This document shows positions 1 through 31,901 of a DNA stretch of 32,000 nucleotides, piece by piece. Positions within the stretch are counted from its first letter, which is position 1, and the number at the start of each line of letters is the position of its first letter. Location: positions 720,001 through 752,000 of the forward strand of contig OZ245049.1 in assembly GCA_965224465.1 (NCBI GenBank), given 5' to 3'. The notes beneath the pieces were generated by a model. The model made no database searches. It saw nothing but the letters and a program-made list of their open reading frames with translations, and had not been told where the DNA came from. The stretch is from Flavobacteriaceae bacterium. GTDB taxonomy: Bacteria > Bacteroidota > Bacteroidia > Flavobacteriales > Flavobacteriaceae. The translations under genes and the position numbers were made by a program.

Positions 1-2516
1 GAGGTACTCGATTTAATATCTTCAAGGGCTTTGTCTAAGGCATTTGTGATGTTATCTTTTAGATTTTGATACTCATCTTGATTAATTACCTCATACTCAA
101 ATCCTGTGCTGTACTTGTTTCCGCCTATTATTTTGATGTAACCGTAACTTTGTAAATCATATAAATACCTGCTTAATGTTTTGGGGTTAATTCGCATTTT
201 AGCACGTAATTCTTTAGCATAAAAACTTTGCCCATTTCCCTTTTTTAAGTGTGCTTTCAGCACTTCCAAAAAATCTCTACACGCTTTTGTCAACTCATCA
301 CTTTTGGCAAGTAATACCGTTTTTAGTAGCTTATTAGCTTGTTCTATATCTTCCAATGTCGTTTCTATGTATTTTTCTCCAGTAGTTTCATTTATTTTTA
401 TTTGCCTCTGCCGCTGGCAGTAAAATGTTACCGTTTCTATAAATGCTAAATAATGGGTGTTTGTTCTTAATGGCTTAAAAACTGTTTCGGGGATATTTAA
501 TAGTGTAGCGTAGGGATTGACAACTTTTACTTTCTCTAATAACCATTGTACATCCTTTAAAAATTCCCTGGCATTATTTTCTTCTTGCTTGTTAATCTTT
601 CCTGCCGATATGTTTTGCTGATAGCTCATAATTCCCTCTTTTTGTTGTTTACTGTTGTCTAAATAGATTAATAATGAACGGTTTGCATTGTCTTCATAAA
701 TCTTTTCTTTGGTAGTTGTTCCTGCTAAACAAATTGGTCCTTCTACGGTTAGGGTTACTGTTTTTAGGTTTCCTTTTGCATCTTTTATAGGTATGGTTTT
801 ACTTATTTTTCGTTTACTCATTAGTTCTCTTATAGCGTACAGTATCTTATCATCTTGTGCTCCATCCAAATCTTCAATTAATATCAATTTGTTTTTTAGT
901 TCTGTTCTGTCAAAGTAGTAAAGTGCATTTTCTGATAGTGCGGTGATTTCTAATTTATGTTCTTCAGGGATTAAGTCTGCTATTTTTTCTTGTAGGTAAG
1001 TTTTTCCTGTGCCGCTTGCTCCAAGACTTATAATATGTAGCGGTTGTTCTCGTAATCTACTCGTAAAAACCAAATACATTAACAGCCGATTATCGACCTC
1101 TCCAACCATTCCCGTTTTACCGATTAAATCATTTGTCTTCCGGAGTAGATTTTCGCCTTTTAAAAAGGTAATTGCTTTTTGTTTTCTTAGCTCTGTTAAT
1201 TCTCTTTGTTTCTTTTTTTGTGGTTTTTGAGCATCAACTTGTCTTAATCTGTAATCTTCTAATCCGTTTATGAGTTCTGCTATTACGTATTGTATTTCTC
1301 GTGTTCCTAATTCTAATCTTTCTGCTACTTTTCTTGTAAATTTCTCTGTTGAATCATCATTGTATAAATCTAAATTACTTTGTCTGATATTATATATTGG
1401 ACTTGGATTATCTGTTCTTGTAATGCGTAAAGTAACTTTTAGCTTGTCTAAACTGAACAAGTTTATCCCACCTAAAACGGCTATTAAAATGTTGTTGTTT
1501 TGGTAAGTGATGTAATCTTGGTTTTCTGTGTTCAGCTCGTTACTTACTGGCTCTGCCTGCTCTGTTACAAATTCAGTTTCTGAACCAAATAGGTTTTCTC
1601 TTTCACTTATTAAATGTTCTAAAATTGTAGGTTCGTGGCTCTGTACTAAACTATTTATATCTTCTCCTTTCGGACAATTAATTTTACTTATTGATAGATT
1701 ATTGAATAGTTGGTTTAGTGTTTTAGAATGTTCTTGCACTGCTTTTTCTCCCGCTTCATCTCCATCAAAGAAAAGTACAACTTCTTTTAAATTTTCTAAT
1801 TTTAATAATGCTTGCTTGTGTTCTTCAGTAAAGCCATTTGTTCCATATAAAGCAAGTGTTTCAAAGTTGGTGTATTTCTGAAGTGTGGCACTATCGATTA
1901 TACTTTCTGTTAAAATGATTACTTGCGTTTCTTTGTTTGGGTATTTTGGATAAAGTCCTTTTCTGTTAGCTGTATAGTAGTGCGTTCCTGTTTTGGCTAT
2001 ATTTCTACCGTAGAAACTTACTATCTCGTTTTGCTCATTTTTCAGAGGGTAAATGATGCAGTTTTTGAGTTGTTTAAAGTGAGTTCCATTATTATATCCT
2101 TGCTCTAATTTCACATCATAGATTCCTCTTTCTTCTAAATACGTTATTGCTTTTTTACTTCTGTGTAGGCTTTGTTTAAATTTGGGGTATAGTTCTTCAA
2201 AGTCTATAGTTTCAGCTTCTTCAAGTTTAGTATTCATAATTTTTAATTCATCATTCGTAATTCCAATAAGGCTTTTCGCCTTATTGATAGCTTTATGTTT
2301 GGTGCAGTTCTCTATTTCTTGTATAAACTGTATTGCATCTCCTGTTTTATCACAACCAAAACAAGTATAGGTATTCGTTTTGGGGTAGATTCTTAAACTC
2401 GGTTTGTTGTCTTTATGGAATGGGCATTTTGCGTGGTTGTTTTTGTTGATTGAGATATTGTACTGACTTAGTACTGTTTCTATGCTTAATTGCTCTTTAA
2501 TTTGCTTGATTTCCAT
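1..2516 (-). CDS. DNA primase (CHC2 zinc finger + TOPRIM) fused to a P-loop NTPase; 3' end cut by the window edge (about 13 nt missing)
   Basis: Colinear with 7555..10070, with a single SNP (1685 vs 9239). The ATG at 2516 gives MEIKQIKEQL. It is absent from the ORF track only because it runs off the window edge. Confidence 0.85.
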   Translation of the reverse strand, partial: MEIKQIKEQLSIETVLSQYNISINKNNHAKCPFHKDNKPSLRIYPKTNTYTCFGCDKTGDAIQFIQEIENCTKHKAINKAKSLIGITNDELKIMNTKLEEAETIDFEELYPKFKQSLHRSKKAITYLEERGIYDVKLEQGYNNGTHFKQLKNCIIYPLKNEQNEIVSFYGRNIAKTGTHYYTANRKGLYPKYPNKETQVIILTESIIDSATLQKYTNFETLALYGTNGFTEEHKQALLKLENLKEVVLFFDGDEAGEKAVQEHSKTLNQLFNNLSISKINCPKGEDINSLVQSHEPTILEHLISERENLFGSETEFVTEQAEPVSNELNTENQDYITYQNNNILIAVLGGINLFSLDKLKVTLRITRTDNPSPIYNIRQSNLDLYNDDSTEKFTRKVAERLELGTREIQYVIAELINGLEDYRLRQVDAQKPQKKKQRELTELRKQKAITFLKGENLLRKTNDLIGKTGMVGEVDNRLLMYLVFTSRLREQPLHIISLGASGTGKTYLQEKIADLIPEEHKLEITALSENALYYFDRTELKNKLILIEDLDGAQDDKILYAIRELMSKRKISKTIPIKDAKGNLKTVTLTVEGPICLAGTTTKEKIYEDNANRSLLIYLDNSKQQKEGIMSYQQNISAGKINKQEENNAREFLKDVQWLLEKVKVVNPYATLLNIPETVFKPLRTNTHYLAFIETVTFYCQRQRQIKINETTGEKYIETTLEDIEQANKLLKTVLLAKSDELTKACRDFLEVLKAHLKKGNGQSFYAKELRAKMRINPKTLSRYLYDLQSYGYIKIIGGNKYSTGFEYEVINQDEYQNLKDNITNALDKALEDIKSST

Positions 2517-2673
2517 CTTTTTTGAAATTGTTAAAAAAACTTTAATGATAACTATTGATTGCAAATGTATATAATAGTTTTCATTTAACAAGAAAACTAT
2601 TATTTTTTTTGGATACTTTTATTAACTAAATTTGCAGAAACAAGTAAACAGTAGTTTACTAATAGATAATATA
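2517..2673. promoter_or_regulatory. Divergent primase/XRE control region with two -7 boxes and a 12-bp perfect inverted repeat
   Basis: TACATTTG on the minus strand (2562..2569) lies 46 nt before the primase ATG. TAAATTTG on the plus strand (2627..2634) lies about 40 nt before the XRE ATG. The inverted repeat ATAATAGTTTTC/GAAAACTATTAT sits at 2571..2582 and 2592..2603. Confidence 0.45.
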
Positions 2674-3009
2674 ATGAATATTGGAAGTAAAATAATAGAA
2701 CTTAGGAAAGCAAAAAACTGGTCTCAAGCAGAACTTGCTGAAAATATAAGCGTGTCTCGTGTGATTATTGGAAAGTATGAACGCAATGACGCATCCCCAT
2801 CAATTGACATTGCAAAAAAGATGGCTGACGCTTTTGGGGTTAGTTTAGATTTTTTAGTAGGTGAGGGTAAAAATGCACACTACAATAAAAAGACATTAAA
2901 AATTATTGAAGAAATTGAAGCACTTGAACCAACTACAAAAGAAAAATTATACTTCTTAGTAAATGCTGTTATTCGAGATTCTAAAATACAAAAAGCTTAT
3001 GCAGGATGA
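2674..3009 (+). CDS. XRE/Cro-C1 family HTH transcriptional regulator
   Basis: HTH_3-like sequence: MNIGSKIIELRKAKNWSQAELAENISVSRVIIGKYERNDASPSIDIAKKMADAFGVSLDFLVG. Start set at the ATG at 2674; the ORF-track start at 2632 is a TTG extension. Confidence 0.85.
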   Translation: MNIGSKIIELRKAKNWSQAELAENISVSRVIIGKYERNDASPSIDIAKKMADAFGVSLDFLVGEGKNAHYNKKTLKIIEEIEALEPTTKEKLYFLVNAVIRDSKIQKAYAG

Positions 3010-3467
3010 GAAAGTTTTAAAACCTCTCTTTTCATATCTTCATACAAAGATAAAGCCTCTTTAAAAATTTCTTTAAGAGTTTCGTAATTATCAAATGAGG
3101 GCTTTTTTACTAAGCCATTTGATTTAATTCCCTGACTGTATTCTATTGATTCACAAATTAGAGAAGCAGGTCCACCTATGATTTGTCCCAATTCCTTATT
3201 TTTACAAGCCAAGATAATTTCAACAACACCATACTTAATTGATAGATGTATGTTGAATTCCCAAATATTATTTGAATCTTTAATTTGATAGAAACTCCCT
3301 TTTGATACAAATATTACTTTACTCCCTAACTCTTTAAAAATATCTAAAATTTGTTTTTTATCTACCTTTTCAAGTCTTCCCTCATTTATTCTTGTTTTCT
3401 TACTTAGATCCTTATAACGTCCATAAAAATTAACGTTCTCAAATATATTAATCCCAAACTCTTCCAT
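2997..3467 (-). CDS. Putative immunity protein for the 223-aa toxin module (variant a)
   Basis: Lies immediately downstream of the toxin module on the same strand, with a TAATG stop/start overlap at 3467. It is small and cytoplasmic-looking, and is the most divergent gene between otherwise identical repeat units. Confidence 0.6.
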   Translation of the reverse strand: MEEFGINIFENVNFYGRYKDLSKKTRINEGRLEKVDKKQILDIFKELGSKVIFVSKGSFYQIKDSNNIWEFNIHLSIKYGVVEIILACKNKELGQIIGGPASLICESIEYSQGIKSNGLVKKPSFDNYETLKEIFKEALSLYEDMKREVLKLSHPA

Positions 3468-4138
3468 TATTCTACTTTAAATCGTAATGTAATTCCTTTG
3501 TTGTTAGCTAAATTAATGTAGTCTTGAATATTACTTAAACTTTGATTAGTAGCAGGAATCTCTAAATACATTTGACCTTGTAAAATTTGACCATCAAGTA
3601 ATGGACTATACTTAGGCGAATTAATTGCTGTCCCTGGACTGTATTTAACTAACATTTCATCAAGATAACTCTCAAAAGTCGAAAGTTGTATATCCCCCAA
3701 ATTAGTTGCTTTTCTTGAAATAATTTCACCTGGATTACCATTAGCAGGTGGTTTATAAGAATCTAATCGTTTTCCATTACCCAAATGAACTTCATTGTAT
3801 GGATACCAATCATTATCAACTGCTTTTTTATTGAATGTGTTACCTCTTGCGAGCGGTGAATCAAATAACCAATAATCTCTTACCTCTTTCCATTCTAATC
3901 TTGGTCTTGGTGTTTTACCTGCATTTGTTTTTCGAGTAACGTACTTTAAATAATCTACTTCAAGTATGTTGTCAATGAATTTACCTGAGCCATTTAACAA
4001 TTCACTCCCTGCATTAGCCAAATCTTCAACACTAGCACTACTTTTTTCAATTGAAAAAAAAGTATCGTTTGCACTTAAATTAAAGCTTGTAAAAAAGCTT
4101 AGTGCAACTATTAAGAATATTTTAAAATGACTATTCAC
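3467..4138 (-). CDS. Displaced polymorphic-toxin C-terminal module (unassigned family, variant a) fused to a signal-peptide-like leader
   Basis: GTG start. The leader MNSHFKIFLIVALSFFTSFNLSA|ND is followed by FFSIEKSSASVEDLAN and then a ~175-aa domain. It shares the LAN junction 9-mer with the large toxin gene. A possible PD-(D/E)xK-like signature (RLDS...GEIISRK) is only a guess. Confidence 0.6.
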   Translation of the reverse strand: MNSHFKIFLIVALSFFTSFNLSANDTFFSIEKSSASVEDLANAGSELLNGSGKFIDNILEVDYLKYVTRKTNAGKTPRPRLEWKEVRDYWLFDSPLARGNTFNKKAVDNDWYPYNEVHLGNGKRLDSYKPPANGNPGEIISRKATNLGDIQLSTFESYLDEMLVKYSPGTAINSPKYSPLLDGQILQGQMYLEIPATNQSLSNIQDYINLANNKGITLRFKVE

Positions 4139-4675
4139 GTTCTCAAATATACAATTTTGTTTTTTTCAACTGACAAAAAACACAAAATGATTTTCTACGT
4201 TTTTTCTTCAATTGAAAAAGAGGCGGCTGTAGCGTGGGTTTTCAATTGAAGAAAAAATGATAGCTTTTTACGGCGATTGAGTAAAACAATTAAGATTCCT
4301 AGTGCGCTGGCAGTAGTGGTGGCAAAAGCGGTGGAATGTGGCTATTTTGCATAATACCAGTTATAACTACCTGTAGTTTTTCACGCAAGAGTATTATAAC
4401 TTGTATTATGTAACTTAGCTTGGGGTGGTTTTTTTGGCGGAGTTTTTGCCTTTTAGCCGTGGCACAGCTCGTTGGATTTTCTTTTTTTCAATTGAAAATA
4501 AAAACTTAAAAAAGAAAATACAATGTGCTGTTTTTTTTAGCGTGGATGCAAAAAATATGACCTAAAAATCACTAGGCAGTGGCGAGCGGAACAAAAGGAA
4601 ATACAAAGGGTTTTTGCTTTTTCTGCAAAAATTTGGATTTGATTTTGTGGGGATTCGTGTGGTGGGATTTAATCG
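4139..4675. other. Conserved non-coding region of the unit (candidate att/ori/regulatory region)
   Basis: No credible ORF. Higher GC than the flanks. About a dozen GTGG on the plus strand and no CCAC that I could find. Contains four TTCAATTGAA palindromes and a 17-bp-arm hairpin. The right half is homologous to 19950..20300. Confidence 0.5.
4350..4410. repeat. Inverted repeat with 17-bp arms (CATAATACCAGTTATAA / TTATAACTTGTATTATG), 27-nt spacer
   Basis: 16 of 17 positions are complementary. Arms lie at 4350..4366 and 4394..4410. Confidence 0.7.
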
Positions 4676-5698
4676 TTAATCTTCTAAAAACCGATCTAAA
4701 CTTTCAATAATATCTTCTGGAGATGGTAACAAACTCTTTAATTCTTCAGGCAGTTTTTCACTTAGGGAATAATCTGCTATTCCCATTGGTTTAGTCGCAG
4801 TATTCAATGCATATTCAACTACAGTTCTGTTTTTAGATTTACAAATTATTATTCCAATAGATGGATTTTCTCCTTCAATCTTCACTTTATCATCTAAAAC
4901 AGAAAGGTAAAACTGCATTTTACCTGCATATTCTGGTTTAAACTCTGTTGTCTTTAATTCAATAGCAATCAAACTTTTTAATCTTCTGTGATACAATAGT
5001 AAATCAATGAAAAATTCTGAACCGTCTAATTCTAAACGATACTGATTACCAATAAAAGAATAATCTCCTCCCATTTCCATTAAAAAACGTCTGATGTTCT
5101 TAACTAAACCAAGTTCTAAATCTCGTTCTTTATAATCTTCTGCCATTTCTAAAAAATCAAAACTATAACTGTCTTTAACCCCTAATTTGGCTTGATGCTT
5201 ATATTTTTCTTCTAACGACTTATCAAAGTTGGTTTGGTTCAATAAAAATCGTTCATAAGATTTACCTTCTACTTGATGAATCAATACATTTTTTGTCCAA
5301 CCATATTTCTTAGCCATTTTAATATAAAACTCACGTTCTAAATCATTTTTACACTTCTCTAAAATTACAAGGTTATGACTCCATCCAATTTCTCGCACCA
5401 ATGGTGCGAGTTTTTCGTTTTCATAATATTCTTGATAAAAACCTTTCATTCTCCAAAGATTACTACTTGAATACCCTCTTGTTCCTGGGAACTCTTTTTG
5501 TAAATCTTTCGCTAAATTTTCTACTACCGATTTACCCCAACCATATTGTTTTTGTTTTTCAATAATAGATTTTCCTAACTCCCAATAAAGATTAATCAAT
5601 TCAGTATTAACTGCTTTTAATGCTTTGTATTGAGATTGATAAATTTTCTCTTTTATCTCTTCTAAAAAATTGATGTAGGATTGGTCTGCTAAATTCAT
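4676..5698 (-). CDS. DUF1016 / YhcG-like PD-(D/E)xK nuclease-domain protein
   Basis: N-terminal region typical of the family (YKALKAVNTELINLYWELGKSIIEKQKQYGWGKSVVENLAKDLQKEFPGTRGYSSSNLWRMKGFY). C-terminal nuclease-like motif FIDLLLYHRRLKSLIAIELK. Start set at the ATG at 5698; the ORF-track start at 5707 is a TTG. Confidence 0.8.
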   Translation of the reverse strand: MNLADQSYINFLEEIKEKIYQSQYKALKAVNTELINLYWELGKSIIEKQKQYGWGKSVVENLAKDLQKEFPGTRGYSSSNLWRMKGFYQEYYENEKLAPLVREIGWSHNLVILEKCKNDLEREFYIKMAKKYGWTKNVLIHQVEGKSYERFLLNQTNFDKSLEEKYKHQAKLGVKDSYSFDFLEMAEDYKERDLELGLVKNIRRFLMEMGGDYSFIGNQYRLELDGSEFFIDLLLYHRRLKSLIAIELKTTEFKPEYAGKMQFYLSVLDDKVKIEGENPSIGIIICKSKNRTVVEYALNTATKPMGIADYSLSEKLPEELKSLLPSPEDIIESLDRFLED

Positions 5699-5729
5699 AA
5701 TTTTCAAAGTTAATTGTTTGGGTTGGATT

Positions 5730-6611
5730 TTACTGTAACGGATGAAACATTTCTATCTGCTTACTCAAATTCTTCATATCCTTATTTCGATACTTTTCTA
5801 TGTTTCCTACATTCTTATAACCGCTTAAATATTGGGTTTTTCTTAGTCCATATAAATCTATCCAAATACCTATTCTTGATTGTTTAAGTTGGGTTAATCT
5901 TTTAATATTTAGTGTTGGATTTTGTTCTCTAATTGTTTTTACTAATGCTTTTAATTGTTCGTGAACTCTTTGTTCTTTATTGACATTTGGATGAAACAAC
6001 TTTTCGCTTGATTCTAAACTTACTTTTCCATTTCTTCCTATTCCTCTAAAACTTGTAATATACTCGTGAAAAGGGATTATCTGATTTGCTTCTAATTTTA
6101 CTATTCTACTGTTCTTTCTTCTTACTCCTCCTGGGACTTTTAGTATTCCTTTTTTTAGATCTAAATCTTCTAATTCTAAATTCATTATATCTTGCTTATC
6201 CAATGCTTGAAAAATCATTAATCCCAATAGTAGTTTATTGCTGTATTTAAAATAGCCGTGTTTAGTTTTATCTTGGTAATTACTGTAAATTTCTTGTAGT
6301 TCTTCTTCTGTTAATAGTATGATTTGTTCTTGTGCTACTCCTCTTAATCTTACGTTTAAAGCAATATTATCTATCTTTAAAAAATGGTAATAATGTTCTA
6401 TTGCTCTAAGGGTTGTATTGATACTTGTTTTTGATTTCTCTTGATTTTGTAAATGACCAATATAGTTTAATAACTGATTGTATTTTATCGTTTTTACGGT
6501 TAGTTTATTGAGTTTTAACCAAGTTGTAAAAAGTCCTATTCTCATTATGAAATCTTTGATACATTTTTCGCTGTAAAACCTATCTATCAACCATTTTCTA
6601 AACTCTTCCAT
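5730..6611 (-). CDS. Tyrosine-recombinase-like protein with a degenerate catalytic set (partner subunit)
   Basis: N-terminal core-binding-like region paralogous to the neighbouring recombinase. By-eye alignment places ALDKQD where GLRSKE (Arg I) is expected, TQLKQS where HSLRHS is expected, and SGY where LGH is expected. The terminal Tyr is kept (IEKY). Confidence 0.6.
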   Translation of the reverse strand: MEEFRKWLIDRFYSEKCIKDFIMRIGLFTTWLKLNKLTVKTIKYNQLLNYIGHLQNQEKSKTSINTTLRAIEHYYHFLKIDNIALNVRLRGVAQEQIILLTEEELQEIYSNYQDKTKHGYFKYSNKLLLGLMIFQALDKQDIMNLELEDLDLKKGILKVPGGVRRKNSRIVKLEANQIIPFHEYITSFRGIGRNGKVSLESSEKLFHPNVNKEQRVHEQLKALVKTIREQNPTLNIKRLTQLKQSRIGIWIDLYGLRKTQYLSGYKNVGNIEKYRNKDMKNLSKQIEMFHPLQ

Positions 6612-7435
6612 TCTTCAAGTATATGGGTGTAAATCTGTGTACTATCTAATCTTTTATGACCTAAAAAATTACCAATATATTCTAACTCCATTCCTTGCTG
6701 TAAAAGGTGTGTCGCTATACTGTGGCGTAAACTGTGCAGTGTTGCATTTTTATTAATGTTTGCCTTATTCATTAACTTCTTTAATCTACTGTTTAAATAT
6801 TGACCTGTTACTTGTGGATTTGATTTCCCAACTAATAAATAGTTACTTTCTGTATTGATTATCTCCCTTGCAAACTCAACATATTCTTTTAAATCTGCTA
6901 TTACTTTTTTACTCATTGGAACGTATCTACTTTGATAATTCTTACTTGGTTTGACATAAATTAATCCTTTGTTAAAGTCTAATTCTTTTGGTTCTAAATT
7001 AATACCTTCTTTACTTCTTAATCCACAACCATAGTAGATACTTAGCATTGCTTTATCAAATAAACCACTCGGACTGTGCCCATCAATTGAAGAAAAAAGT
7101 TGTTGTATTTCTAATTGATTAAAGATTACTTTTTCTGTTTTTATTTCTCTTTCTACTATAATTTTATTGACTGCTAATTTCTGTTTTTTGGTCTTTTCTA
7201 AAAAGGCACTGTATCTATTTATTACGTTAATATGACCTTGTATATATTGTCTACTGGCTTTGGTTTGATGCAAGCCTTTTATAAACTCTTCTATCTCTTG
7301 TTGATTAGCTTTTCTTTGATTTAAGTACTTGAAAAAATTAGCTAATAACCTTACATATCCTTTGATGGTGCTTTCTGCATAGCCTAATCTAACTAACCAA
7401 TTCTCAAAGTTTTCTAATTCTTCTTTTAAATTCAT
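6587..7435 (-). CDS. Tyrosine recombinase / integrase (XerC/D-like, canonical catalytic residues)
   Basis: GCGLRSKE (Arg I) and HSLRHSIATHLLQQGMELEYIGNFLGHKRLDSTQIY (HxxR, H, Y). Overlaps the downstream partner gene by 25 nt. Confidence 0.85.
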   Translation of the reverse strand: MNLKEELENFENWLVRLGYAESTIKGYVRLLANFFKYLNQRKANQQEIEEFIKGLHQTKASRQYIQGHINVINRYSAFLEKTKKQKLAVNKIIVEREIKTEKVIFNQLEIQQLFSSIDGHSPSGLFDKAMLSIYYGCGLRSKEGINLEPKELDFNKGLIYVKPSKNYQSRYVPMSKKVIADLKEYVEFAREIINTESNYLLVGKSNPQVTGQYLNSRLKKLMNKANINKNATLHSLRHSIATHLLQQGMELEYIGNFLGHKRLDSTQIYTHILEEWKSLENG

Positions 7436-13252: not shown

Positions 13253-13283
13253 AATTTTCAAAGTTAATTGTTTGGGTTGGATT

Positions 13284-14165: not shown

Positions 14166-14175
14166 CTTTATTTTA

Positions 14176-15030: not shown

Positions 15031-15130
15031 AGTTTTAATAATTGGATACCGAACCTTTCGACTTAGGGGGGTGCTGTGCATTTGGGGATTTTACTGGGTT
15101 ACCTCTGTAACTTATTGATAGTCGGTTAGT

Positions 15131-21746: not shown

Positions 21747-21756
21747 CTTTATTTTA

Positions 21757-22611
21757 TTAGCTACCTGCCTCAGAATCTTCACTTATACGAACATATATTT
21801 GTGTGCTATCCAATCGTTTATGACCTAAAAAATCACCAATATATTCCAGTTCCATTCCTTGCTGTAAAAGATGAGTCGCAATGCTATGTCTAAGGCTGTG
21901 CAAAGTGGCTTGTTTTGTTATTCCTGCTTTTGATTGTAGTTTTTTTAACCTACTATTTAAATATTGTCCTGTTACTTGTGGTTTTGATTTTCCTACTAAT
22001 AAATACTTACTTTTCGAGTTGATTATCTCCCTTGAAAATTCAATGTATTCTTTTAAATCTGCTATTACTTTTTGACTCATTGGAACATATCTACTTTGAT
22101 AGTTTTTACTTGGTTTTATATAAATTAATCCTTTGTTAAAGTCGAGTTCTTTTGGTTCTAAATGAATGCCTTCTTTACTTCTTAATCCACAACCATAATA
22201 AATACTTAGCATTGCTTTATCCATTAATCCCAAAGGTTTATTTTCATCAATTGAAGAAAAAAGTTGTTTAATTTCTTCTTGACTAAAAATTATTCTTTCT
22301 GTTTTGATTTCTCTTTCTACTATGATTTTACCTGTTACTAATTTTTGCTTTTTAGTTAATTCTAAAAAGGCACTATATCTATTGATTACATTGATGTAAC
22401 CTTGTATTGATTGTCTTGCTAATTTGGTTTGATGCAAGCCTTTTATAAACTCTTCTATCTCTTGTTGATTAGGCGGTGAGCCACCGCAGGCAGTTTTTAG
22501 GTATTTAAAAAAAACAGCTAATAACCTTACATATCCTTTAATCGTACTTTCTGCATAACCTAATCTTACTAACCAATTTTCAAAGTTTTCTAATTCTTCT
22601 TTTACGTTCAT
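21757..22611 (-). CDS. Tyrosine recombinase / integrase (canonical catalytic residues)
   Basis: Identical to 14176..15030 at an offset of 7581. Confidence 0.85.
   Translation of the reverse strand: MNVKEELENFENWLVRLGYAESTIKGYVRLLAVFFKYLKTACGGSPPNQQEIEEFIKGLHQTKLARQSIQGYINVINRYSAFLELTKKQKLVTGKIIVEREIKTERIIFSQEEIKQLFSSIDENKPLGLMDKAMLSIYYGCGLRSKEGIHLEPKELDFNKGLIYIKPSKNYQSRYVPMSQKVIADLKEYIEFSREIINSKSKYLLVGKSKPQVTGQYLNSRLKKLQSKAGITKQATLHSLRHSIATHLLQQGMELEYIGDFLGHKRLDSTQIYVRISEDSEAGS
22473..22492. repeat. The same 20-nt element (unit D recombinase)
   Basis: Offset of 7581 from 14892. Confidence 0.75.
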
Positions 22612-22711
22612 AGTTTTAATAATTGGATACCGAACCTTTCGACTTAGGGGGGTGCTGTGCATTTGGGGATTTTACTGGGTTACCTCTGTAACTTATTGAT
22701 AGTCGGTTAGT

Positions 22712-25282: not shown

Positions 25283-25447
25283 CTTTTCTAAAATTATTTG
25301 AAAAAAGTTTTATATACCTATTTGCTACAAAGGTAACAAATAGGTAATAATTAACAATACTTTTAGATTGATTATTTTTCAATAATTACCCTATATTTGC
25401 ATACAGAGAAGCAATAATGCGATAAAACAAGCTAATTATATACCTTT
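25283..25447. promoter_or_regulatory. Divergent primase/XRE control region (copy of 17693..17857)
   Basis: -7 boxes at 25328..25335 (minus strand) and 25392..25399 (plus strand). Inverted repeat at 25316..25324 and 25337..25345. Confidence 0.45.
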
Positions 25448-25786
25448 ATGACACTTGGCGAGAATATGAAAATAGTGAGAATGCAAAAGAAAATGTCACA
25501 AGCTGACTTAGCTAAACTTGCTGATGTGCATCAAAAAAACATTTCTAAGTATGAAAATGATGGCGTTATACCATCTGCTTTAGTTTTAAAAGAAATTGCT
25601 CGAGCTCTTGGGGTTACTACCGATTTTTTACTCGGTAGCCAAAGTGATACCGTAATTAAAGACGTGAAACTGCTAAACTTCTTTAAAGAAATAGATAATA
25701 TGCCTGACAACCTAAAAGGTTCTTTAGTACAGGTTATTGAAGCGTATGTACAGAATTATAAAGCTAAACAGGCTTATGCAGAATAA
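25448..25786 (+). CDS. XRE/Cro-C1 family HTH transcriptional regulator
   Basis: Differs from 17858..18196 by one residue (K vs E at position 8). Confidence 0.85.
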   Translation: MTLGENMKIVRMQKKMSQADLAKLADVHQKNISKYENDGVIPSALVLKEIARALGVTTDFLLGSQSDTVIKDVKLLNFFKEIDNMPDNLKGSLVQVIEAYVQNYKAKQAYAE

Positions 25787-26429
25787 ATTTTACACTTTAA
25801 AACCTGCAGTAGACACAAAAGAGACTGGAAATATTTTCCCTGCTGTAGAGAGTTATGAAGATTATGATTTTAACAGCTCTAATTCTGTACATAACTTAGA
25901 TTCGGATAGCTTCCCTGATTTTACGCCTGATATTCGTCTTAAGCTTGCTAAAGGCGCAAAACTTTGTGACGTTATGGGACAAGGCACCATTAGTGCTTGT
26001 GGATTATTGATAAGTCAAAATGTAAAAGATGTTTTTGAAAAATTTAACTTAATTCCACATAGGTATTTTGATGCAACTATTGAAGATAAAGGTGTAATTC
26101 ATAAATACTATTGGGTACATTTTGTTTGGAAAGACGCGATAAATCATCTTAATTTTGAAAACAGTAAATTTCAAATTAATGAATTTGGCGATAATCTTGG
26201 CGAGATAAAAATAAGAAATTATAAAGAACTACTTGAAAAGCAAACAGAATATGGATTTATGAAGACTATTTACAATTATGAAACAGAAATGTTTACTGTA
26301 AATTCTAATTTATTTATTCACCCATTAAACAAAACGATTTATGTATCAGAGAAAATTTATAATTCTTTTTTACATAAATCGCTTAAAGGAATTGATTTGT
26401 CACTAGCCCCAAATTTATTAATGAGGTAA
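25776..26429 (+). CDS. Putative immunity protein for the AHH nuclease tip (possibly DUF1629/Imm11-like)
   Basis: Identical to 18186..18839. Converges on, and overlaps by 12 nt, the 3' end of the full-length toxin gene. Confidence 0.5.
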   Translation: MQNKFYTLKPAVDTKETGNIFPAVESYEDYDFNSSNSVHNLDSDSFPDFTPDIRLKLAKGAKLCDVMGQGTISACGLLISQNVKDVFEKFNLIPHRYFDATIEDKGVIHKYYWVHFVWKDAINHLNFENSKFQINEFGDNLGEIKIRNYKELLEKQTEYGFMKTIYNYETEMFTVNSNLFIHPLNKTIYVSEKIYNSFLHKSLKGIDLSLAPNLLMR

Positions 26430-29400
26430 GTTTAAATCTAAAAGATTTATTCTACCTGATGTTGCATTTATCTTATTTTCCAAAGAATTAGATAATCCTT
26501 CTATATATTGTTTCGTCAACTGAGGGTTTAAGTTTTTGTTTTTTACTCCATTGACTACTTGTTCACCCCACCAATTCAAATGTTCTCCTATTTGATTTGT
26601 ATAACTTGGATGTGGTCCGTGCTTCCCTAACCTTGTAGCTTTAGAATATTTATCTAATCCCATACCATTAGTAACCCCATTAAAGTCAAAACCTCCTTCA
26701 ACTGCTTTTTTAACAGTTGCGTTTTCTTTCAATAATTGAACAGGAAATAAATGATGAGCCTCTTGTCCTGACTGTATTCCTGATATTGTACCTCTTAAAT
26801 CACCTCTATGTTTAATAGTGTTTTTTACAATTTTAGAGCCATAAGATGACACATCTTCAACAAATCCAATACTACCATCTGCATTTTTCACAAAACCACC
26901 TCCGATAATTGTTTCACCTGAACTGGTTTTAACTGAAGTCATTCCTGTAATAGGTGTAGTATTATTTCCTGTTGCTTTAAAAAAGTCATCTGATATTTCT
27001 AAAATCTCATCCGAACCATTTTTAACCACTCTTGCTATCTCATCACCATTTTGTGCTGTGATTTTTACAACATCATCTATTTTGTTGTAATTTAAACCTA
27101 AATGAGCCCAATCATCAAACTTACTTGCAAGCTTTGGAAATATAGAAGCAATATCACCCACCGTATTAGCCAAAAGTCTTTGAGAAGTCTTTGAGATATC
27201 TTCAACTAATTCATCAGGTAGTTTTTCAGATGCAATCAAGGACTTATTAAATTCTAAAACATCATCTGCACTTCTTTTCAATGCTTTCCCTAATAAAGCG
27301 TCTCCACTTAATGATACTATTTCTAACACAAACAGATATGTCCGCATCTTTTTACACAAATCTGTGTCACAATCAGAATATTCTAAAGCAGTCCCTAAAG
27401 TCCCACTTGAAACTTCTACAGCTCCTACAAAAATTTTTAGTGTTTCTAATTTTTTTAGTGTCTTTAGATGCCTTAGGTGACGAAGTTTCGCCAAATTCCC
27501 AACTCCAGAAAGGGTTGAAATCACATCTATAGTTAAATAAATACCGTTTTCAACATTACTGGTATAATTTTTAGATGCAATAGCCTGTAATATGAATAAA
27601 GGTAAAACAGGAGATTTATCTGGGAAATTAAAATTAGTATCTATTTCTAGGTAATTAATTAAATTTACAGGTTGATAAATACCAAATTCACCTATAAGAC
27701 TTTCTGTTGTAAATTTATTTGGCATAGCTCCATACATGCCATTTGTTGCACTCCCAACATATTCAGTTTCATTCTTTATAACTTTTATCTGAGCCGCGTT
27801 CTCGTTTAAATACAACTTATAATCACTTGTATAAAATCCAACTAGTTTGGAACTTGTATATGGGATTACTTCAAGATTTTTTTCTAAATTATTTTTAACA
27901 TAATTAGACTCTTTCCAAATATAATACAATGTATGGATGTAAGTGGTGAAATTATCATCTCCTCCCCAATCATCTAACTTCTCAAATATTTTTCTATAAA
28001 CAGTTTTTCCTTCAATTTTTTCAGAAAACAACCCATCCAAAAATTTAGTTTCATCCTGTTTTCCAAGTCCTTCAATAATAGTTAACACTGCCTTTTCTTC
28101 GTTAACCAATCGCTCATCAACACCACAAATTAACAAGCCTTTTAATGCATTCCATAACTGTTTATTATTAAACGTATTGGCAATATGAAAATTTGGGATT
28201 TCTGCAAAGTACAAATCGATGTCCCCACAATCAGGTAAGTTATCTGTAATGTAAGGAAGGTATTTTTTATCTAACCAAGAAATAATATTCTTAGATACTT
28301 TTGTTCTTGAAATACTAGAACCAATAATTACTACTTTATCAAGGTCTATAATATTATCTTTTACATAATCCTCATATGTCATGTCGGAGGGAATACCTAA
28401 CATCTCCTTTGCATCCTCTTCTGTTGCAATATCTTCTTCCTCGATTTCGATATTATCTAAAGTAATATTATCACCATTTATCCCTAGTGTTTTACAAAAA
28501 TTTTCTATATCATCGTGATGGTCAAATTGAAATACAAATTTATTACCCAACCCATCGGATAATTCAAGTTTATAGAATATATCAAAAACATTGAACAGAA
28601 ATAAAAACCTACTCTTCTTTACTTTTAAAGACTCTGATTTATTATCTATACTAATTTGTGCTATATTTCCACTAGGTTGCTGGACAAGATTAAAATTTAA
28701 ACCTGTACTCTCAAATATATGATGATAATAACCACGAAGATTACATGGAATAGAACCATTTACTTTAGAAGAACTACATTTTTTAATTTGATCTTTCCAT
28801 TCTAGATTAGTTTTTTCTCCTGCATAAGTTTTTTTAATATGGTTCAGAATCCGATCCATTTGTTCCTTTTTATAAGAACTTGAAATACTTTCCCCTTCAC
28901 TATCCCCATCAAAAATCCCAATCCTCAATTTCGGATTGTGTATGGCTTTCCAATGTACATAAGGTAAATTCTCTCCATTATTATAATCTAGTAACCAATT
29001 GGTACTTCCTGTAGCATATTTATAACTATGCGTAGAGAATGGATGTTTTAGCTGGAATGCACCGTGGGCGAGTTCGTGTGCTACGGTTATCCCCCCAGCC
29101 CCCAAAGGGGGAGAATTTGCGGTAAAAATATAACCGAATTGTCTGCCTAGAGGCATTAAACCACTTTCTGTGTTGCTATTTCCGCTGGCATCCACAGGCT
29201 GTTTGTCTGTTAAGATTAAATAATAAGCTTCAGGGTTAAAGTTACCATGCTCTTTTAATGCCTTATTTATACTACGCTGTTGCTCTGTGTATTGCGCTGC
29301 AAAGCCACTTTCTCCACTTTTTATAGTGCCGTCTGGTGTTAGACTGTTTAGGGTCGCTGTAAAATCGTTAATTACAGAAATATTTAGGCTAACTGCTGCT

Positions 29401-31901
29401 TGTTGGTAAATAGCTTTTAGTTTTTTTGTAATGGCACTTGTATTCGCTTTTGAAGTATTTACCAATACTACGACCACTTCCTTTATGGCAATTTGGTATT
29501 GCATAAAAGCCCCTGCTATTTGGTATTTATCGCCTTGTTTTACTAAGGCTTGGGTTTCTATATCGGCATCGCTTAGCGTTCCTTTTAATTTCAACGTATA
29601 GGAAGTACTAGTACTATCTACTTTTTTCAGTCCTACACCATCTTTGGTTTTAAAAATAATGTCTTGAGGTTTTATACTATCGTTGGTTATTTTGAAATTG
29701 GCAACAATAAATTCTACCGTTCCTTTAGCTACCGCTTTGTAGGGCATGTAATAAGCTGACCCTAACTTTTTGTACAAGTCCTTGGTTTGTGGCTGGCTTG
29801 GGCTGTAGGCGTCGAATCCAGTGGGCAGTGTTGCAGTAGGCAGTTGGGTGAACGTTACGGTGACACCTTGTGCGGTGATGTTAGTGGCTTCTCCTTTGCT
29901 GTTTACGCCTGTGGTGTTTTCCACAGTGGTAGTACCGCCTTCGGCTTGTGGACCTAATTCGGTTACATTTCCTTGTTCGTCTACATGGTATTTTTTTGGT
30001 AGTACTGGTGGTTTTGCTTTGGAATCTCCGCTATCGGTTATTATATAGTCCTCTCCTCCAGACAATTCTACAATAGGTGCACCGCCTTTTCCTACTAATA
30101 ATATATCTCCGTTGCTTGGGTCTACTAGGATTTCTGCTATTTGGAAGTTGACTTCGCTGGTATTTACTTGTCCATCACCTCCATTAAATAGATCCCCTGT
30201 ACCCTTTACACTACTCCATGTAGGATCGTAGGTAGTTTTAACGACTCCTTCATACAATTCGTAATCCGTATTTATTTTAATTCCTTTAAACTCTACCGCT
30301 ATTTTGGTATCTGCTAAATAAGGAACTACAATATATCCCGTTCCAGAAAAAGTACCATTTCCTCCTTGTTTCTGTTTTACTGTCACAGGGAAATCTCCTG
30401 CCGTAAATGTTTCGTTCACGCCAATATTTGCCAATGGCTTAGTGTTGGTAATTTCAATTTCGGGGATAATACCACAGCTATAACTCACCGTTTCGTCCTT
30501 GGTAGGCATGGTAAACTGGTTTACATTGCTGTAAGTAAACGCTTGGTTTAAATCCGTTATCTCATGGCAAGTACCACCCACTCTAAAATCGTAGGTAACT
30601 CCTGCTTGTAAATTTGATACTTGGGCTTGGTTGTTATAAGAAAATATTTCGAACCATTCGGCATCGGCTACATCGGCACGTTTGTATTGTAAATGATACC
30701 TGTTGTGATCTGGATGTGTTTTCCAACTTATTTTCACACGCCCTGTATTTAGCGGTTCTGCCAAAGTCATGGTGGGTGGATAACACTGATTTGTATAGGT
30801 AAAATAAAATATTTCGCTATACCCATTGTTCTTAAAAACCGAGTTTTCGCTCAATCCTGTTGTAGATTTTGCGCGTACTCGCCAAGCATAGGTACGCCCT
30901 GGCATTAATGGAGGCTTGCTTATGTTGTACGATATGGTAGTGGAATAGGTAGTCTCCGAATGATAAGGAGGCGCTGCTAAAAATCCTGCTTGAGGATCTA
31001 TCTGCGTATCCCAAAGCTCACGCAGTTCAAACTCATAACTTACACCACTCGCATTGGCATGCCGTGGTGTCCATTGAAAAGTAATGTTGGTGGGTTGTAT
31101 ATTAGTCAATTGATCCCCTCGGTTGGGAATATTTAAAAAAGGAGGATCGTTTAACAGTAAAAAGATATTAGAACAGCCTCCCATTTTAGGATTGGAGATG
31201 CGTTGTCCTGATAAAAAATCGTAGACTTCCCAACATATTTTGTAGCGTCCATCAGGTAGTGGTCTGTTGTATTGTTGTGGACTAATGCCTATTAAATTAT
31301 GTAACTGAAAATAGGCTGCTAAATCTATGTTTGTAAATTGTTGTGTACTTTTCCCATTGAGGTAAATAAAAGGTGCTCCTTGTACAAAATTTACAGATTG
31401 TATATTGAGTCCCTGTCCTTGTATTTTTAATTTTAAGCGTATTTGACGGTTGCTAATATTGGCATCGTTCATGGTCAAATACAGCCGTAATTTTACAGCA
31501 GACGTTGTTGCATAACTGTTTAGTTTTGTGTTATAAGGGGGGACTATATTTTGACTTACTTGTACTGGGTGGAGTTGGGCCTGTGTAAGTTGGCAGGTTA
31601 GCAATAGGCAGAATGCAGTTAGCAGTTTTGCGGTGACAGTAGGCAGTTTTGCAGTTGGCAGTAGGCAGTTGAGCATCTTTGCGGTTAGAATAGGCAGTTG
31701 CTCTTTGTTGCGGTTATTTGCAGTAGGCGGAATGCAGTTGAGCAACTTTGCGGCAAAAGAAATTAAATATGTTGTACCATTTTTAAAGTTAGAATTTGGT
31801 TTTTTTTCACAACAGTGAGTACTGCCTACTGCCAATTTTAACCTCAACAATGCTCCTGCGTACTGCTTACTGAAAACTGCATACTCTATAAACTTTTTCA
31901 T
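26418..31901 (-). CDS. Large secreted polymorphic toxin with an internal HExxH zincin motif and a C-terminal AHH (HNH/EndoVII) nuclease module
   Basis: 5.5-kb ORF. A signal-peptide-like segment KLLTAFCLLLTCQLTQAQ follows an internal ATG at 31676, which may be the true start. Beta-rich, FN3-like segments are present (TNITFQWTPRH..., RVKISWKTHPDHNRYHLQYK...). HELAH lies at 29064..29078 and the AHH motif at 26751..26759. I saw no YD/Rhs repeats and no obvious T9SS C-terminal domain. Confidence 0.8.
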   Translation of the reverse strand: MKKFIEYAVFSKQYAGALLRLKLAVGSTHCCEKKPNSNFKNGTTYLISFAAKLLNCIPPTANNRNKEQLPILTAKMLNCLLPTAKLPTVTAKLLTAFCLLLTCQLTQAQLHPVQVSQNIVPPYNTKLNSYATTSAVKLRLYLTMNDANISNRQIRLKLKIQGQGLNIQSVNFVQGAPFIYLNGKSTQQFTNIDLAAYFQLHNLIGISPQQYNRPLPDGRYKICWEVYDFLSGQRISNPKMGGCSNIFLLLNDPPFLNIPNRGDQLTNIQPTNITFQWTPRHANASGVSYEFELRELWDTQIDPQAGFLAAPPYHSETTYSTTISYNISKPPLMPGRTYAWRVRAKSTTGLSENSVFKNNGYSEIFYFTYTNQCYPPTMTLAEPLNTGRVKISWKTHPDHNRYHLQYKRADVADAEWFEIFSYNNQAQVSNLQAGVTYDFRVGGTCHEITDLNQAFTYSNVNQFTMPTKDETVSYSCGIIPEIEITNTKPLANIGVNETFTAGDFPVTVKQKQGGNGTFSGTGYIVVPYLADTKIAVEFKGIKINTDYELYEGVVKTTYDPTWSSVKGTGDLFNGGDGQVNTSEVNFQIAEILVDPSNGDILLVGKGGAPIVELSGGEDYIITDSGDSKAKPPVLPKKYHVDEQGNVTELGPQAEGGTTTVENTTGVNSKGEATNITAQGVTVTFTQLPTATLPTGFDAYSPSQPQTKDLYKKLGSAYYMPYKAVAKGTVEFIVANFKITNDSIKPQDIIFKTKDGVGLKKVDSTSTSYTLKLKGTLSDADIETQALVKQGDKYQIAGAFMQYQIAIKEVVVVLVNTSKANTSAITKKLKAIYQQAAVSLNISVINDFTATLNSLTPDGTIKSGESGFAAQYTEQQRSINKALKEHGNFNPEAYYLILTDKQPVDASGNSNTESGLMPLGRQFGYIFTANSPPLGAGGITVAHELAHGAFQLKHPFSTHSYKYATGSTNWLLDYNNGENLPYVHWKAIHNPKLRIGIFDGDSEGESISSSYKKEQMDRILNHIKKTYAGEKTNLEWKDQIKKCSSSKVNGSIPCNLRGYYHHIFESTGLNFNLVQQPSGNIAQISIDNKSESLKVKKSRFLFLFNVFDIFYKLELSDGLGNKFVFQFDHHDDIENFCKTLGINGDNITLDNIEIEEEDIATEEDAKEMLGIPSDMTYEDYVKDNIIDLDKVVIIGSSISRTKVSKNIISWLDKKYLPYITDNLPDCGDIDLYFAEIPNFHIANTFNNKQLWNALKGLLICGVDERLVNEEKAVLTIIEGLGKQDETKFLDGLFSEKIEGKTVYRKIFEKLDDWGGDDNFTTYIHTLYYIWKESNYVKNNLEKNLEVIPYTSSKLVGFYTSDYKLYLNENAAQIKVIKNETEYVGSATNGMYGAMPNKFTTESLIGEFGIYQPVNLINYLEIDTNFNFPDKSPVLPLFILQAIASKNYTSNVENGIYLTIDVISTLSGVGNLAKLRHLRHLKTLKKLETLKIFVGAVEVSSGTLGTALEYSDCDTDLCKKMRTYLFVLEIVSLSGDALLGKALKRSADDVLEFNKSLIASEKLPDELVEDISKTSQRLLANTVGDIASIFPKLASKFDDWAHLGLNYNKIDDVVKITAQNGDEIARVVKNGSDEILEISDDFFKATGNNTTPITGMTSVKTSSGETIIGGGFVKNADGSIGFVEDVSSYGSKIVKNTIKHRGDLRGTISGIQSGQEAHHLFPVQLLKENATVKKAVEGGFDFNGVTNGMGLDKYSKATRLGKHGPHPSYTNQIGEHLNWWGEQVVNGVKNKNLNPQLTKQYIEGLSNSLENKINATSGRINLLDLNLPH
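31600..31884. repeat. Cluster of GC-rich GGCAGT/GCAGTT-type short repeats in both orientations at the 5' end of the toxin gene
   Basis: Imperfect repeats such as TAGGCAGAATGCAGTTAGCAGTTTTGCGG (31603..) and TAGGCGGAATGCAGTTGAGCAACTTTGCGG (31722..). Perfect 15-nt inverted pair at 31655..31669 and 31821..31835. Confidence 0.65.

Follow-up and report, generated by a model that had tools for sequence, protein, structure and literature searches.

Head-to-tail primase- and recombinase-bearing units behind a polymorphic toxin gene are probable integrative elements with an attachment site inside toxin genes

What are the long repeats that follow a large polymorphic toxin gene in a Flavobacteriaceae bacterium, and how did they come to be there? 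The question is raised by a stretch of 32,000 nucleotides (GenBank assembly GCA_965224465.1, contig OZ245049.1, positions 720,001 to 752,000), here called the window, whose GC content is about 30%. On its minus strand, the ORF map and a self-comparison place one open reading frame (ORF) of 1827 amino acids (aa) at 26418-31901 and, behind it, a unit repeated head to tail four times. A preliminary description, made from these letters, had seen four units behind a polymorphic toxin gene, each with its own replication-type protein, repressor and recombinase pair; the ORF map, the self-comparison and the Pfam and NCBIfam matches bear out the arrangement, and the gene calls in the window units agree with the inventory. 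We propose that the units are site-specific integrative, probably self-replicating elements of 7.5-8 kb with an attachment site inside toxin genes, where the body of the toxin meets its C-terminal tip, and we consider this reading probable. The units are 7.55-8.0 kb long, with a start-to-start spacing of 7554-7622 bp in the self-comparison, and are delimited as follows, each from one short repeated core to the next.

27173 to 19584, minus strand: unit D, core to core, 7590 bp
19583 to 11576, minus strand: unit C, core to core, 8008 bp
11575 to 4022, minus strand: unit B, core to core, 7554 bp
4021 to beyond the window, minus strand: unit A, cut inside the primase gene by the window edge

The gene order is common to the units. 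Read along the minus strand, it runs from the tip through a putative immunity gene, an XRE gene and a primase-helicase gene to two overlapping tyrosine recombinase genes, after which each unit has a variable cargo, about 550-600 bp of non-coding DNA and a leader that continues in frame into the next tip. Domain calls on the window proteins were made with Pfam and NCBIfam, and PHROG was also searched; among the matches there is no relaxase, capsid or transposase gene in the window, in agreement with what had been noticed before, and tRNA and Rfam scans of the window gave no match.

Where exactly does one unit end and the next begin? The border is a 9-bp core, TTGGCTAAT, which encodes Leu-Ala-Asn. 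The whole window has exactly four copies of it on the minus strand, all at junctions between a body or leader and a tip, and none on the plus strand.

27165 to 27173, minus strand: core copy 1, junction of toxin body and tip, attL-like; identity to unit C starts exactly here
19575 to 19583, minus strand: core copy 2, junction of leader and AHH tip C, from the junction alignment
11567 to 11575, minus strand: core copy 3, junction of leader and tip 223b, from the junction alignment
4013 to 4021, minus strand: core copy 4, junction of leader and tip 223a, from the junction alignment

Left of the core, D and C are unrelated, D having the toxin body there and C the leader, and their identity stops exactly at the core. 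From the core onward, the tip of the large gene is identical to that of the 290-aa leader and AHH tip ORF of unit C, and Pfam recognizes AHH, so the large toxin body is indeed fused to an AHH tip. Junctions of the AHH type and of the 223-aa type have only about 9-20 bp in common, that is, the core and a few following bases; because the shared sequence is so short, ordinary homologous recombination is implausible at these junctions. All four junctions of the window are in frame on both sides, and what adjoins each displaced tip on its left is element DNA. An inversion shufflon was also considered and ruled out, since all four cores are in direct orientation and the plus strand of the window has none.

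The units are mosaic. D equals C from the tip through the recombinases, C equals B in the DUF1016 gene, the non-coding arm and the leader, and B equals A in the XRE and primase genes. D and C are 100% identical across about 6.3 kb, including the tip, the immunity gene, the XRE gene, most of the primase gene and both recombinases, and neighbouring units in general have 100% identical stretches of 2.5-7 kb. Several window proteins, or near-identical ones, map to a single 5.24-Mb contig together with a further primase (P0174) and a paralogous toxin (P0001); given that all of these are on one contig, the array most likely belongs to a finished genome that has more units elsewhere.

Are such units found in other bacteria? 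With the primase protein we found 67 loci in genomes (one genome per species) and 79 in metagenomes, which together make 146 loci with 154 units. The relatives come from Flavobacteriia, Chitinophagia and Cytophagia, and all but two bins of metagenome-assembled genomes (MAGs) are labelled Bacteroidota. Among assessable units, the divergent XRE gene is conserved in 110 of 122, the first recombinase in 115 of 122 and the second in 95 of 96. The preliminary description had set against its own reading a pattern in which units always occupy unrelated sites, for example tRNA genes. The pattern found is a different one: in 57 of the 59 units whose upstream sequence is long enough, a co-directional ORF of at least 180 aa lies within 2.8 kb upstream (at least 900 aa in 16 cases), and no related unit with upstream sequence in the 146 loci is at a tRNA. 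Within the 67 genome loci, 12 units lie directly behind a large gene (1136-2871 aa) and 19 behind another unit. The four large genes sampled are of the Rhs/DUF6443 type, the SprB/BNR type with a CDI EC869-like tip, the LRR type and the TANFOR type. After each related unit there are ORFs of about 300 aa that represent displaced tips, most of which open with the end of an Rhs core (YYPFG...DPxGL); the Rhs-type ones retain a piece of Rhs core 100-350 bp long, with 71-79% identity to the main gene, whereas those of the window keep only 9-20 bp. When 50 tips were searched, 17 different toxin-type Pfam families were found, each once. Tandem arrays are also present in independent long-read assemblies, namely a Cytophagales MAG (about 96 kb) and a Ferruginibacter chromosome (at least four units).

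Does the DNA between two cores behave as a block? In one MAG, two different toxin genes contain the same 8.07-kb element, the copies being 99.7-100% identical (L040/L041). The shared block comprises the tip, the immunity gene, the XRE gene, the primase-helicase gene, both recombinases and the arm; its identity begins and ends at a 25-bp core, AATGAGTACTACCC(G/A)TTTGGGATG, with divergence right after the next core copy, and a single-nucleotide polymorphism inside the core puts the crossover within TTTGGGATG. Two contigs from different metagenomes (L102/L103) share 8610 bp at 99.98%, and this block opens exactly at ATTATTATCC(A/G)TTCGGG; upstream of it is an Rhs body in one contig and the arm of another unit in the other. 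Two neighbouring Ferruginibacter units (L029/L064) share 8492 bp at 99.94% identity and have a core at each end, the identity of L042 and L045 ends at the right core, and in the Cytophagales arrays a conserved arm of about 110 nt abuts the core while the tips diverge directly beyond it. Short-read contigs break at cores: in L047 (8161 bp) and L145 (7389 bp) the two ends carry an identical core of 20 or 23 bp, and YYPFG is the exact starting point of six contigs. A single-copy relative in Aquimarina (L003) has a 16-bp repeat, ATCAATAACGCGGGGG, whose copies are 7624 bp apart and whose position is homologous to that of the window core. In the window, L003, L040/L041 and L102/L103 alike, the element is bounded by direct core repeats, with the target regenerated on one side and a fragment displaced on the other. 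The pairs L040/L041 and L102/L103, together with the upstream toxin genes, thus support the earlier suggestion of site-specific entry at the junction of pre-toxin and toxin, with the old tip pushed downstream.

How could an element of this kind work? Its free, presumably circular form would carry, in order, an outward promoter and leader, the core, and then the tip, the immunity gene, the XRE gene, the primase/MCM-like helicase, the recombinase with its degenerate partner, the cargo and the non-coding arm. The recombinase pair would cross the core of the element with an identical short core in a resident toxin gene, the resident body would gain the incoming tip in frame plus its immunity gene, and the old tip and immunity gene would be left downstream, joined to the leader and promoter of the element. 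As they would then stand behind an element promoter, immunity to the old toxin would probably still be expressed. Head-to-tail arrays would result from further insertion at the junction, from re-insertion of copies and from core-to-core exchange; recombination between any two cores would delete or re-order units and change the displayed tip, and homologous exchange between near-identical backbones reshuffles modules further. The XRE protein, whose gene is divergent from the primase-recombinase operon, would keep the element quiet. The sequences show the anatomy, the cores, the breakpoints and the spread over the phylum, and from these we infer the catalysis, the excision, the replication of circles, the regulation, the expression of displaced modules and any passage between cells. 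It is tempting to go further and to picture a Bacteroidota-wide, integron-like switching of weapons in which each cassette would be an autonomous replicon, recombination between cores would cut out, multiply and put back units, a lineage could exchange the tip on its delivered toxin while immunity to former tips would be kept and expressed from element promoters, and circles would spread toxin/immunity pairs between cells and between scaffolds (Rhs, SprB, LRR and TANFOR); this extension we offer tentatively, as a possibility that we would not yet call probable.

A number of observations weigh against the proposal of a site-specific integrative element. No circular or excised form was found among the contigs, and the short contigs have no assembler-type terminal overlaps; the core overlaps at the ends of L047 and L145 are what a tandem array would give too. 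We found no allele of the same toxin gene with a strictly empty site, an exact attL search of metagenomes gave 0 matches, a scan of IMG/VR viral contigs with the primase gave no relative, and a plasmid search gave only distant primase homologues with 25-37% identity. The position and sequence of the core vary by lineage (LAN, YYPFG, WNHFELREYD and DHLGN), which means that each recombinase lineage would need its own specificity, and inspection by eye found no convincing dyad symmetry around the cores. Short-homology recombination at identical stretches of 16-32 bp could have contributed as an alternative route. Many breaks in identity are away from the cores: just 3' of the XRE gene (L075/L076, L045/L060 and window units A and B), in the spacer that separates XRE from primase in window units B and C, where the primase gene starts in L030/L098, and at the edge of the cargo in window units C and D. 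Therefore, part of the array structure, and much of its fine structure, comes from homologous exchange between backbones and not from independent insertions. Since D and C carry the same tip, the last event in the window left the toxin unchanged. Moreover, the toxicity and immunity ascribed to the AHH/230-aa and 223-aa/156-aa pairs are putative.

These points have to be set beside other explanations of the locus. It might be a classical orphan-tip array made by homologous recombination, with the XRE-primase-recombinase backbone as an unrelated selfish element lodged between the modules and without a role in their movement. The Rhs core retained by Rhs-type displaced ORFs is as in classical orphans, the same backbone in L075/L076 is flanked on both sides by different tip/immunity modules (the left break being just 3' of XRE), and L019 and L063 hold orphan modules without a backbone. 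Even so, we find this account unlikely: the mobile block of L040/L041 and of L029/L064 includes the tip and the immunity gene and is bounded by cores, the junction types of the window have no more than those few bases in common and the element arm abuts the core, the leaders and promoters ahead of displaced tips are element sequence, and essentially every unit has the recombinase pair. A second account would derive the array mainly from one or two resident units, by tandem duplication (unequal crossing-over) and gene conversion, and not from repeated independent insertions. Whole modules differ, however, between the units of the window (AHH versus 223-aa tips, two XRE types, yefM-yoeB versus DUF1016, recombinases at 72-88% identity), and the same element occurs at two separate loci in L040/L041, which makes such an origin very unlikely as the main one despite the identical blocks in adjacent units (A/B, C/B and D/C), the same tip in D and C, and the identical neighbouring units of L040 and L029/L064. 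Duplication and conversion probably add to insertion instead of replacing it.

The units might also be phage satellites or vesicle-borne islands, akin to PICI, P4 or tycheposons, for which the toxin gene is a mere landing site and the tips are cargo with no role in swapping. A divergent XRE gene, a primase-helicase, an integrase and a small size do recall satellites in general, and so do the ORF6N/Rha-like cargo of L001 and L003 and the toxin-antitoxin cargo of the window. But insertion is always in frame at the border of body and tip and a tip and an immunity gene are present in every unit, neither of which follows from incidental targeting, and Pfam and PHROG revealed no packaging, capsid-redirecting or AlpA-like genes, while IMG/VR yielded 0 relatives; we judge this explanation distinctly unlikely. 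That the tandem array is an assembly artefact, as long identical stretches between neighbours could make one fear, is extremely improbable: module content differs between units, window proteins map to one 5.24-Mb contig, and the independent long-read assemblies of Cytophagales and Ferruginibacter have arrays of the same kind. Insertion of site-specific elements, supplemented by exchange between their backbones, is the best reading.

Which proteins would perform the exchange? Each unit has two Xer-like genes matched by Phage_integrase, as had been described; the claim of a recombinase pair needs qualification in that the second protein has a degenerate active site.

21757 to 22662, minus strand: unit D, Xer-like tyrosine recombinase, 301 aa, active site intact, Phage_integrase 1e-37
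20865 to 21782, minus strand: unit D, second tyrosine-recombinase paralogue, 305 aa, degenerate, Phage_integrase 2e-8, overlapping the first by 26 bp
13284 to 15081, minus strand: unit C, recombinase pair of 301 aa (14176-15081) and 305 aa (13284-14201)
5730 to 7435, minus strand: unit B, recombinase pair of 282 aa (6587-7435) and 293 aa (5730-6611), 72-88% identical to unit C

The first recombinase resembles XerA, XerD and XerC, under the equivalog cutoffs, and its R-K-H-R-H-Y residues are invariant in 55 homologues save for one alignment gap at the Tyr column. In 57 homologues of the second, Arg-I is kept in 3, His-II is lost, Arg-II is kept in 52, His-III in 53 and Tyr in 56. The catalytic columns were read against an E. 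coli XerD sequence, whose six catalytic positions appeared as expected. The pairing of an active recombinase with a degenerate partner suggests an asymmetric complex, in which the partner may serve in site recognition or only one strand pair may be exchanged.

What, then, is the role of the primase-helicase? The preliminary description had called it a primase-NTPase; the primase is of the DnaG type, as this name implies, but the NTPase half proves in a fold search to be an MCM-like helicase.

22712 to 25282, minus strand: unit D, fusion of DnaG-type primase and MCM-like AAA+ helicase with C-terminal winged helix, 856 aa, Pfam Zn_ribbon_DnaG and Toprim
15131 to 17692, minus strand: unit C, primase-helicase, 853 aa, 97% identical to D, with a divergent patch
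7542 to 10145, minus strand: unit B, primase-helicase, 867-aa ORF, start probably the ATG at 10070
1 to 2591, minus strand: unit A, primase-helicase truncated at the window edge, 100% identical to unit B

The 856-aa protein was modelled with AlphaFold from an alignment of 40 sequences; the mean pLDDT (predicted local distance difference test) is 76, with only 50-65 in the ATPase core. With Foldseek, the N-terminal part of the model matched the DnaG primase 2au3 (E 8e-16) and the C-terminal part matched MCM2-7 and archaeal MCM subunits (E 1e-8 to 1e-6, probability 1.00), whereas a PDB sequence search with the helicase half gave nothing useful. Walker A (GASGTGKT) and the motif IEDLDG are invariant in the alignment, and the family numbers at least 2,154 protein clusters at E<=1e-20. 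We take the replication protein to be a predicted fusion of a DnaG primase with an MCM-like helicase, the confidence of the model being moderate in the ATPase core. Small replicons rely on primase-helicases of such a kind to start their own replication, and replication of an excised circle is thus plausible. Many units of Flavobacteriales and Crocinitomicaceae (L039, L047-L059 and L117-L141) encode a helicase-only protein, about 510-570 aa long, in which the DnaG primase domain is missing. Between the primase genes of D and C, a 500-bp patch (window 24674-25173) with 78-93% identity is set between 100% identical flanks; it resembles a tract that gene conversion has copied from an unseen third unit. 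In addition, ORFs of 52-117 aa lie antisense, on the plus strand, inside every primase-helicase gene (window 709-2370, 8563-9435, 15181-17546 and 22762-25136), and are probably spurious products of the strong AT skew of these genes (about -0.3).

The non-coding arm and leader, which close each unit, have the following layout.

19584 to 20301, minus strand: unit D, non-coding arm and leader; TTTTCAATTGAAAA palindromes at 19606-19619, 19738-19751 and 19990-20003; TAnnTTTG at 19707-19714; leader codons 19584-19700
11576 to 12229, minus strand: unit C, non-coding arm and leader; palindromes within 11598-12052; TAnnTTTG at 11698-11705; 100% identical to the arm of B
4022 to 4675, minus strand: unit B, non-coding arm and leader; palindromes within 4044-4498; TAnnTTTG at 4144-4151

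The perfect palindrome TTTTCAATTGAAAA has 13 matches where 2.2 are expected, a number that none of 100 shuffles reached. All copies are in the arms, 3-5 in each, and none is near the junction of the toxin body. The motif recurs 110-140 bp ahead of the junction in Chitinophagaceae units (L016-L036 and L061) with primases only about 45% identical. Its role could be that of an operator, an origin element or an arm site for the recombinase. One copy also encodes the stretch FFSIEK of the leader.

Is there a way for a displaced module to be expressed? The sequence TAnnTTTG is the Bacteroidetes -7 promoter consensus. With a background frequency of 6.6e-4 per nt, boxes of this sequence precede every leader start by 6-7 nt, every primase start by 46 nt and every XRE start by 39-48 nt, and the XRE-primase spacer of unit D (25283-25447) has them in both directions. 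From these positions, each unit seems to have three promoters, one of which would read outward into the displaced tip and its immunity gene. Ahead of the Rhs-type MGCxKL leaders, none of 9 cases has a strict box and there are only looser TATCTT-like variants, so that the promoter assignment is confined to the subfamily of the window. Displaced Rhs tips often open with an arm-encoded peptide, MGC(L/R/K/Q)KL(T/S/A)Y (L009, L019, L028, L033, L039, L050, L054 and L060), which is common to units from three Bacteroidota classes and, unlike the leader of the window, is not a signal peptide.

The tips, immunity genes, repressors and cargo of the units are listed next.

26418 to 27173, minus strand: unit D, tip of 251 codons with AHH nuclease domain, fused in frame to the body, Pfam AHH 7.8e-7, 100% identical to tip C
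25737 to 26429, plus strand: unit D, putative immunity protein, 230 aa, opposite to the toxin and in line with XRE, role suggested by position
25448 to 25786, plus strand: unit D, XRE repressor, 112 aa, HTH_3 2.9e-15, divergent from the primase-helicase operon
20302 to 20804, minus strand: unit D, cargo slot with a yefM-yoeB toxin-antitoxin pair, PhdYeFM 2.7e-16 and YoeB 2.5e-39
18828 to 19700, minus strand: unit C, 290-aa ORF of signal-peptide-like leader and displaced AHH tip C, AHH 8.7e-8
17858 to 18839, plus strand: unit C, XRE (17858-18196) and 230-aa putative immunity gene (18147-18839), 100% identical to D in 250-bp windows
12230 to 13261, minus strand: unit C, cargo slot with a YhcG/DUF1016 PD-(D/E)xK nuclease, 343 aa, YhcG_C 6e-61 and DUF1016_N 2e-45
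10551 to 11692, minus strand: unit B, leader and 223-aa tip b (11021-11692) and 156-aa putative immunity gene (10551-11021) whose start overlaps the toxin stop
10186 to 10563, plus strand: unit B, XRE repressor, 125-aa ORF, HTH_3 1.5e-17
4676 to 5707, minus strand: unit B, DUF1016 cargo, 100% identical to unit C
2632 to 4138, both strands: unit A, variable module of leader and tip 223a (3467-4138, minus), 156-aa putative immunity gene (2997-3467, minus) and XRE (2632-3009, plus)

The genes that had been claimed as immunity genes lie beside the tips and are putative in that role. The 230-aa ORF of units D and C is on the strand opposite to its tip and matches Imm11 at 18.3 bits, below the Pfam threshold of 22.1, and the 156-aa module has no family match. 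A domain of about 180 aa in the 223-aa tip has 51 homologues with varied N-termini and likewise no family match; it is from position and from these varied N-termini that the 223-aa and 156-aa modules may be assigned toxin and immunity roles. The window holds two XRE types. The XRE proteins of C and D differ by one residue, and units A and B are 88-90% identical in the tip, 72-79% in the immunity gene and 96-100% in XRE.

What kind of toxin gene precedes these units?

27174 to 31901, minus strand: polymorphic toxin body (whole ORF 26418-31901, 1827 aa), with fn3 domains and an HExxH motif, start codon uncertain

It has 408 homologues at E<=1e-10, mostly in Flavobacteriia, in which the N-terminal half is conserved and the C-terminal toxin domains are varied: AHH, EndoU, deaminase, ART (ADP-ribosyltransferase), Col-Pyo DNase and non-specific endonuclease. 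One homologue, P0031 (38% identity over 81% of the query), carries the NCBI name "TANFOR domain-containing protein", while the TANFOR model has no match to the window toxin itself in NCBIfam or Pfam. On the strength of this homology, we assign the 1827-aa gene to the TANFOR class. Polymorphic toxins of this class have been described from Bacteroidetes (PMC7073777), in a text that makes no mention of integrase, recombinase, primase, mobile, orphan or horizontal. P0001, the paralogue encoded on that 5.24-Mb contig, matches the window toxin at about 99% identity over residues ~108-1000 and is unrelated beyond. Its divergence, at window position ~28880 (residue ~1005, FDGDSEGES), marks a second, more upstream exchange point to which no element is visibly attached. 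GC is 38-41% in the N-terminal half of the toxin gene (window 29001-32000) and 28-33% in the C-terminal half and the four units; this contrast suggests that everything downstream of toxin residue ~1000 has a different origin or is under different constraints. In Polaribacter (L069, 15480-17277), a TANFOR toxin that shares 37% identity with that of the window over its full length has the same LANAGD junction, and downstream of it are only an immunity gene and a DUF1016 gene, followed by chromosomal genes and no element. It may be an unoccupied site, or one that an element has vacated.

A few other loci depart from the common plan. In Oceanihabitans sp. IOP_32 (L068, 18188-22397) and in the metagenome contig L071, an extra module of leader, tip and immunity gene, with no backbone, lies between the full toxin gene and the first unit; it may be the remnant of a deleted backbone or the product of insertion into a displaced junction. 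Beside the same Oceanihabitans toxin locus, an IS200-type Y1 transposase interrupts a gene (L068, 16805-17377), and a transposase-like gene of 381 aa lies within the Cytophagales array (L058, 2137-4690).

How do these units compare with known systems? Orphan arrays of C-terminal toxin (CT) and immunity modules are known behind rhs, cdiA and mafB genes. They have been reviewed in a 2012 survey (PMC3482391), which mentions only XerC/D genes beside polyimmunity loci. As in those arrays, a full-length toxin gene is followed here by displaced tip and immunity modules, the tips are highly diverse, and the displaced ORFs of the Rhs-type relatives keep a piece of the conserved core. Unlike in those arrays, each module comes with XRE, primase-helicase and two recombinases, the displaced tips gain a leader and promoter from the element, and the breakpoints are short cores and not long homology. 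The rAID-1 system is defined by a single 5' XerD-like recombinase followed by at least two co-directional immunity genes with repetitive intergenic motifs (10.1101/471110). The units resemble rAID-1 of Bacteroidales in their occurrence in Bacteroidota, their Xer-like tyrosine recombinases, the accumulated immunity genes and the low GC; they differ in having a recombinase pair per unit, a primase-helicase, intact tips and a full toxin gene, whereas rAID-1 has integron-like repeats. The contrast with orphan arrays and rAID-1 that had been drawn earlier thus holds against the rAID-1 definition, and mobility genes are present in every unit.

Integron cassettes carry no recombinase or replication gene, and the platform-encoded IntI uses folded attC sites. 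The units are like integrons in that a new cassette would take the expressed position and push older ones downstream, in that short sites flank the cassettes, and in that excision and re-insertion would re-order expression; they are unlike them in that each unit encodes its own recombinases, which score 113.6 and 63.7 bits with integron-integrase models whose cutoffs are 265 and 435. Integrative mobile elements exploiting Xer (IMEX) rely on host XerCD at dif and have no recombinase of their own, whereas the units have their own pair and their sites are in toxin genes. Genomic islands that integrate in the 3' end of tRNA and tmRNA genes and regenerate the target have been catalogued in Islander (PMC4383910). 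As in such islands, a tyrosine-recombinase element splits its target, provides a 3' end and displaces a fragment by which its own end is marked; here, however, the target is a protein-coding toxin gene, the replacement 3' end differs, being a new toxin with an immunity gene, and there is no tRNA in the window.

Tycheposons form tandem arrays at one site and have replication modules, two features that the units share. Phage satellites (P4-like, PICI and PICMI) are small integrative elements with an integrase and with a repressor divergent from a primase-helicase or replication module. The units have an integrase, a repressor and a primase/replication module as well, but differ from satellites in the lack of Pfam and PHROG matches to packaging or capsid-redirecting functions, in the two recombinases, in the attachment site in a toxin gene and in the lack of IMG/VR relatives. 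Their primase-helicase is like the replicative ones of plasmids and viruses in joining a DnaG zinc ribbon and Toprim to a hexameric-helicase-type ATPase with Walker A and B motifs. A Flavobacteriales recombinase element from marine vesicles (PMC11876622) was set aside, as it adjoins a tRNA and few of its genes can be annotated. A literature search, with subscription-only papers outside its coverage, found no description of elements like ours. The system combines a site-specific integrative element with a polymorphic-toxin locus. It works as a blend of orphan-tip arrays, integrons, islands that regenerate the 3' end of a tRNA target, and small repressor-primase-integrase islands such as phage satellites or tycheposons, and it fails defining features of each; as far as can be told, the finding is real, widespread and undescribed.

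What would such elements mean for their hosts? New tips and orphan arrays are usually ascribed to homologous recombination with unknown donor DNA. The elements provide a concrete, testable vehicle for the turnover of tips, in which a tip and its immunity gene would arrive by site-specific insertion into a toxin gene, and they are found on at least four unrelated delivery scaffolds in three Bacteroidota classes. Their primase-MCM fusion represents an uncharacterised family of bacterial replication proteins with thousands of members. If active, the elements would define a new class of targets for integrative elements, namely the interior of protein-coding toxin genes, and their recombinase pair, with its short, in-frame, lineage-specific sites, would be usable for the programmable exchange of C-terminal domains. 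If active, they would also account for the rapid turnover of toxins, and for the persistence of old immunity genes, among environmental and host-associated Bacteroidota.

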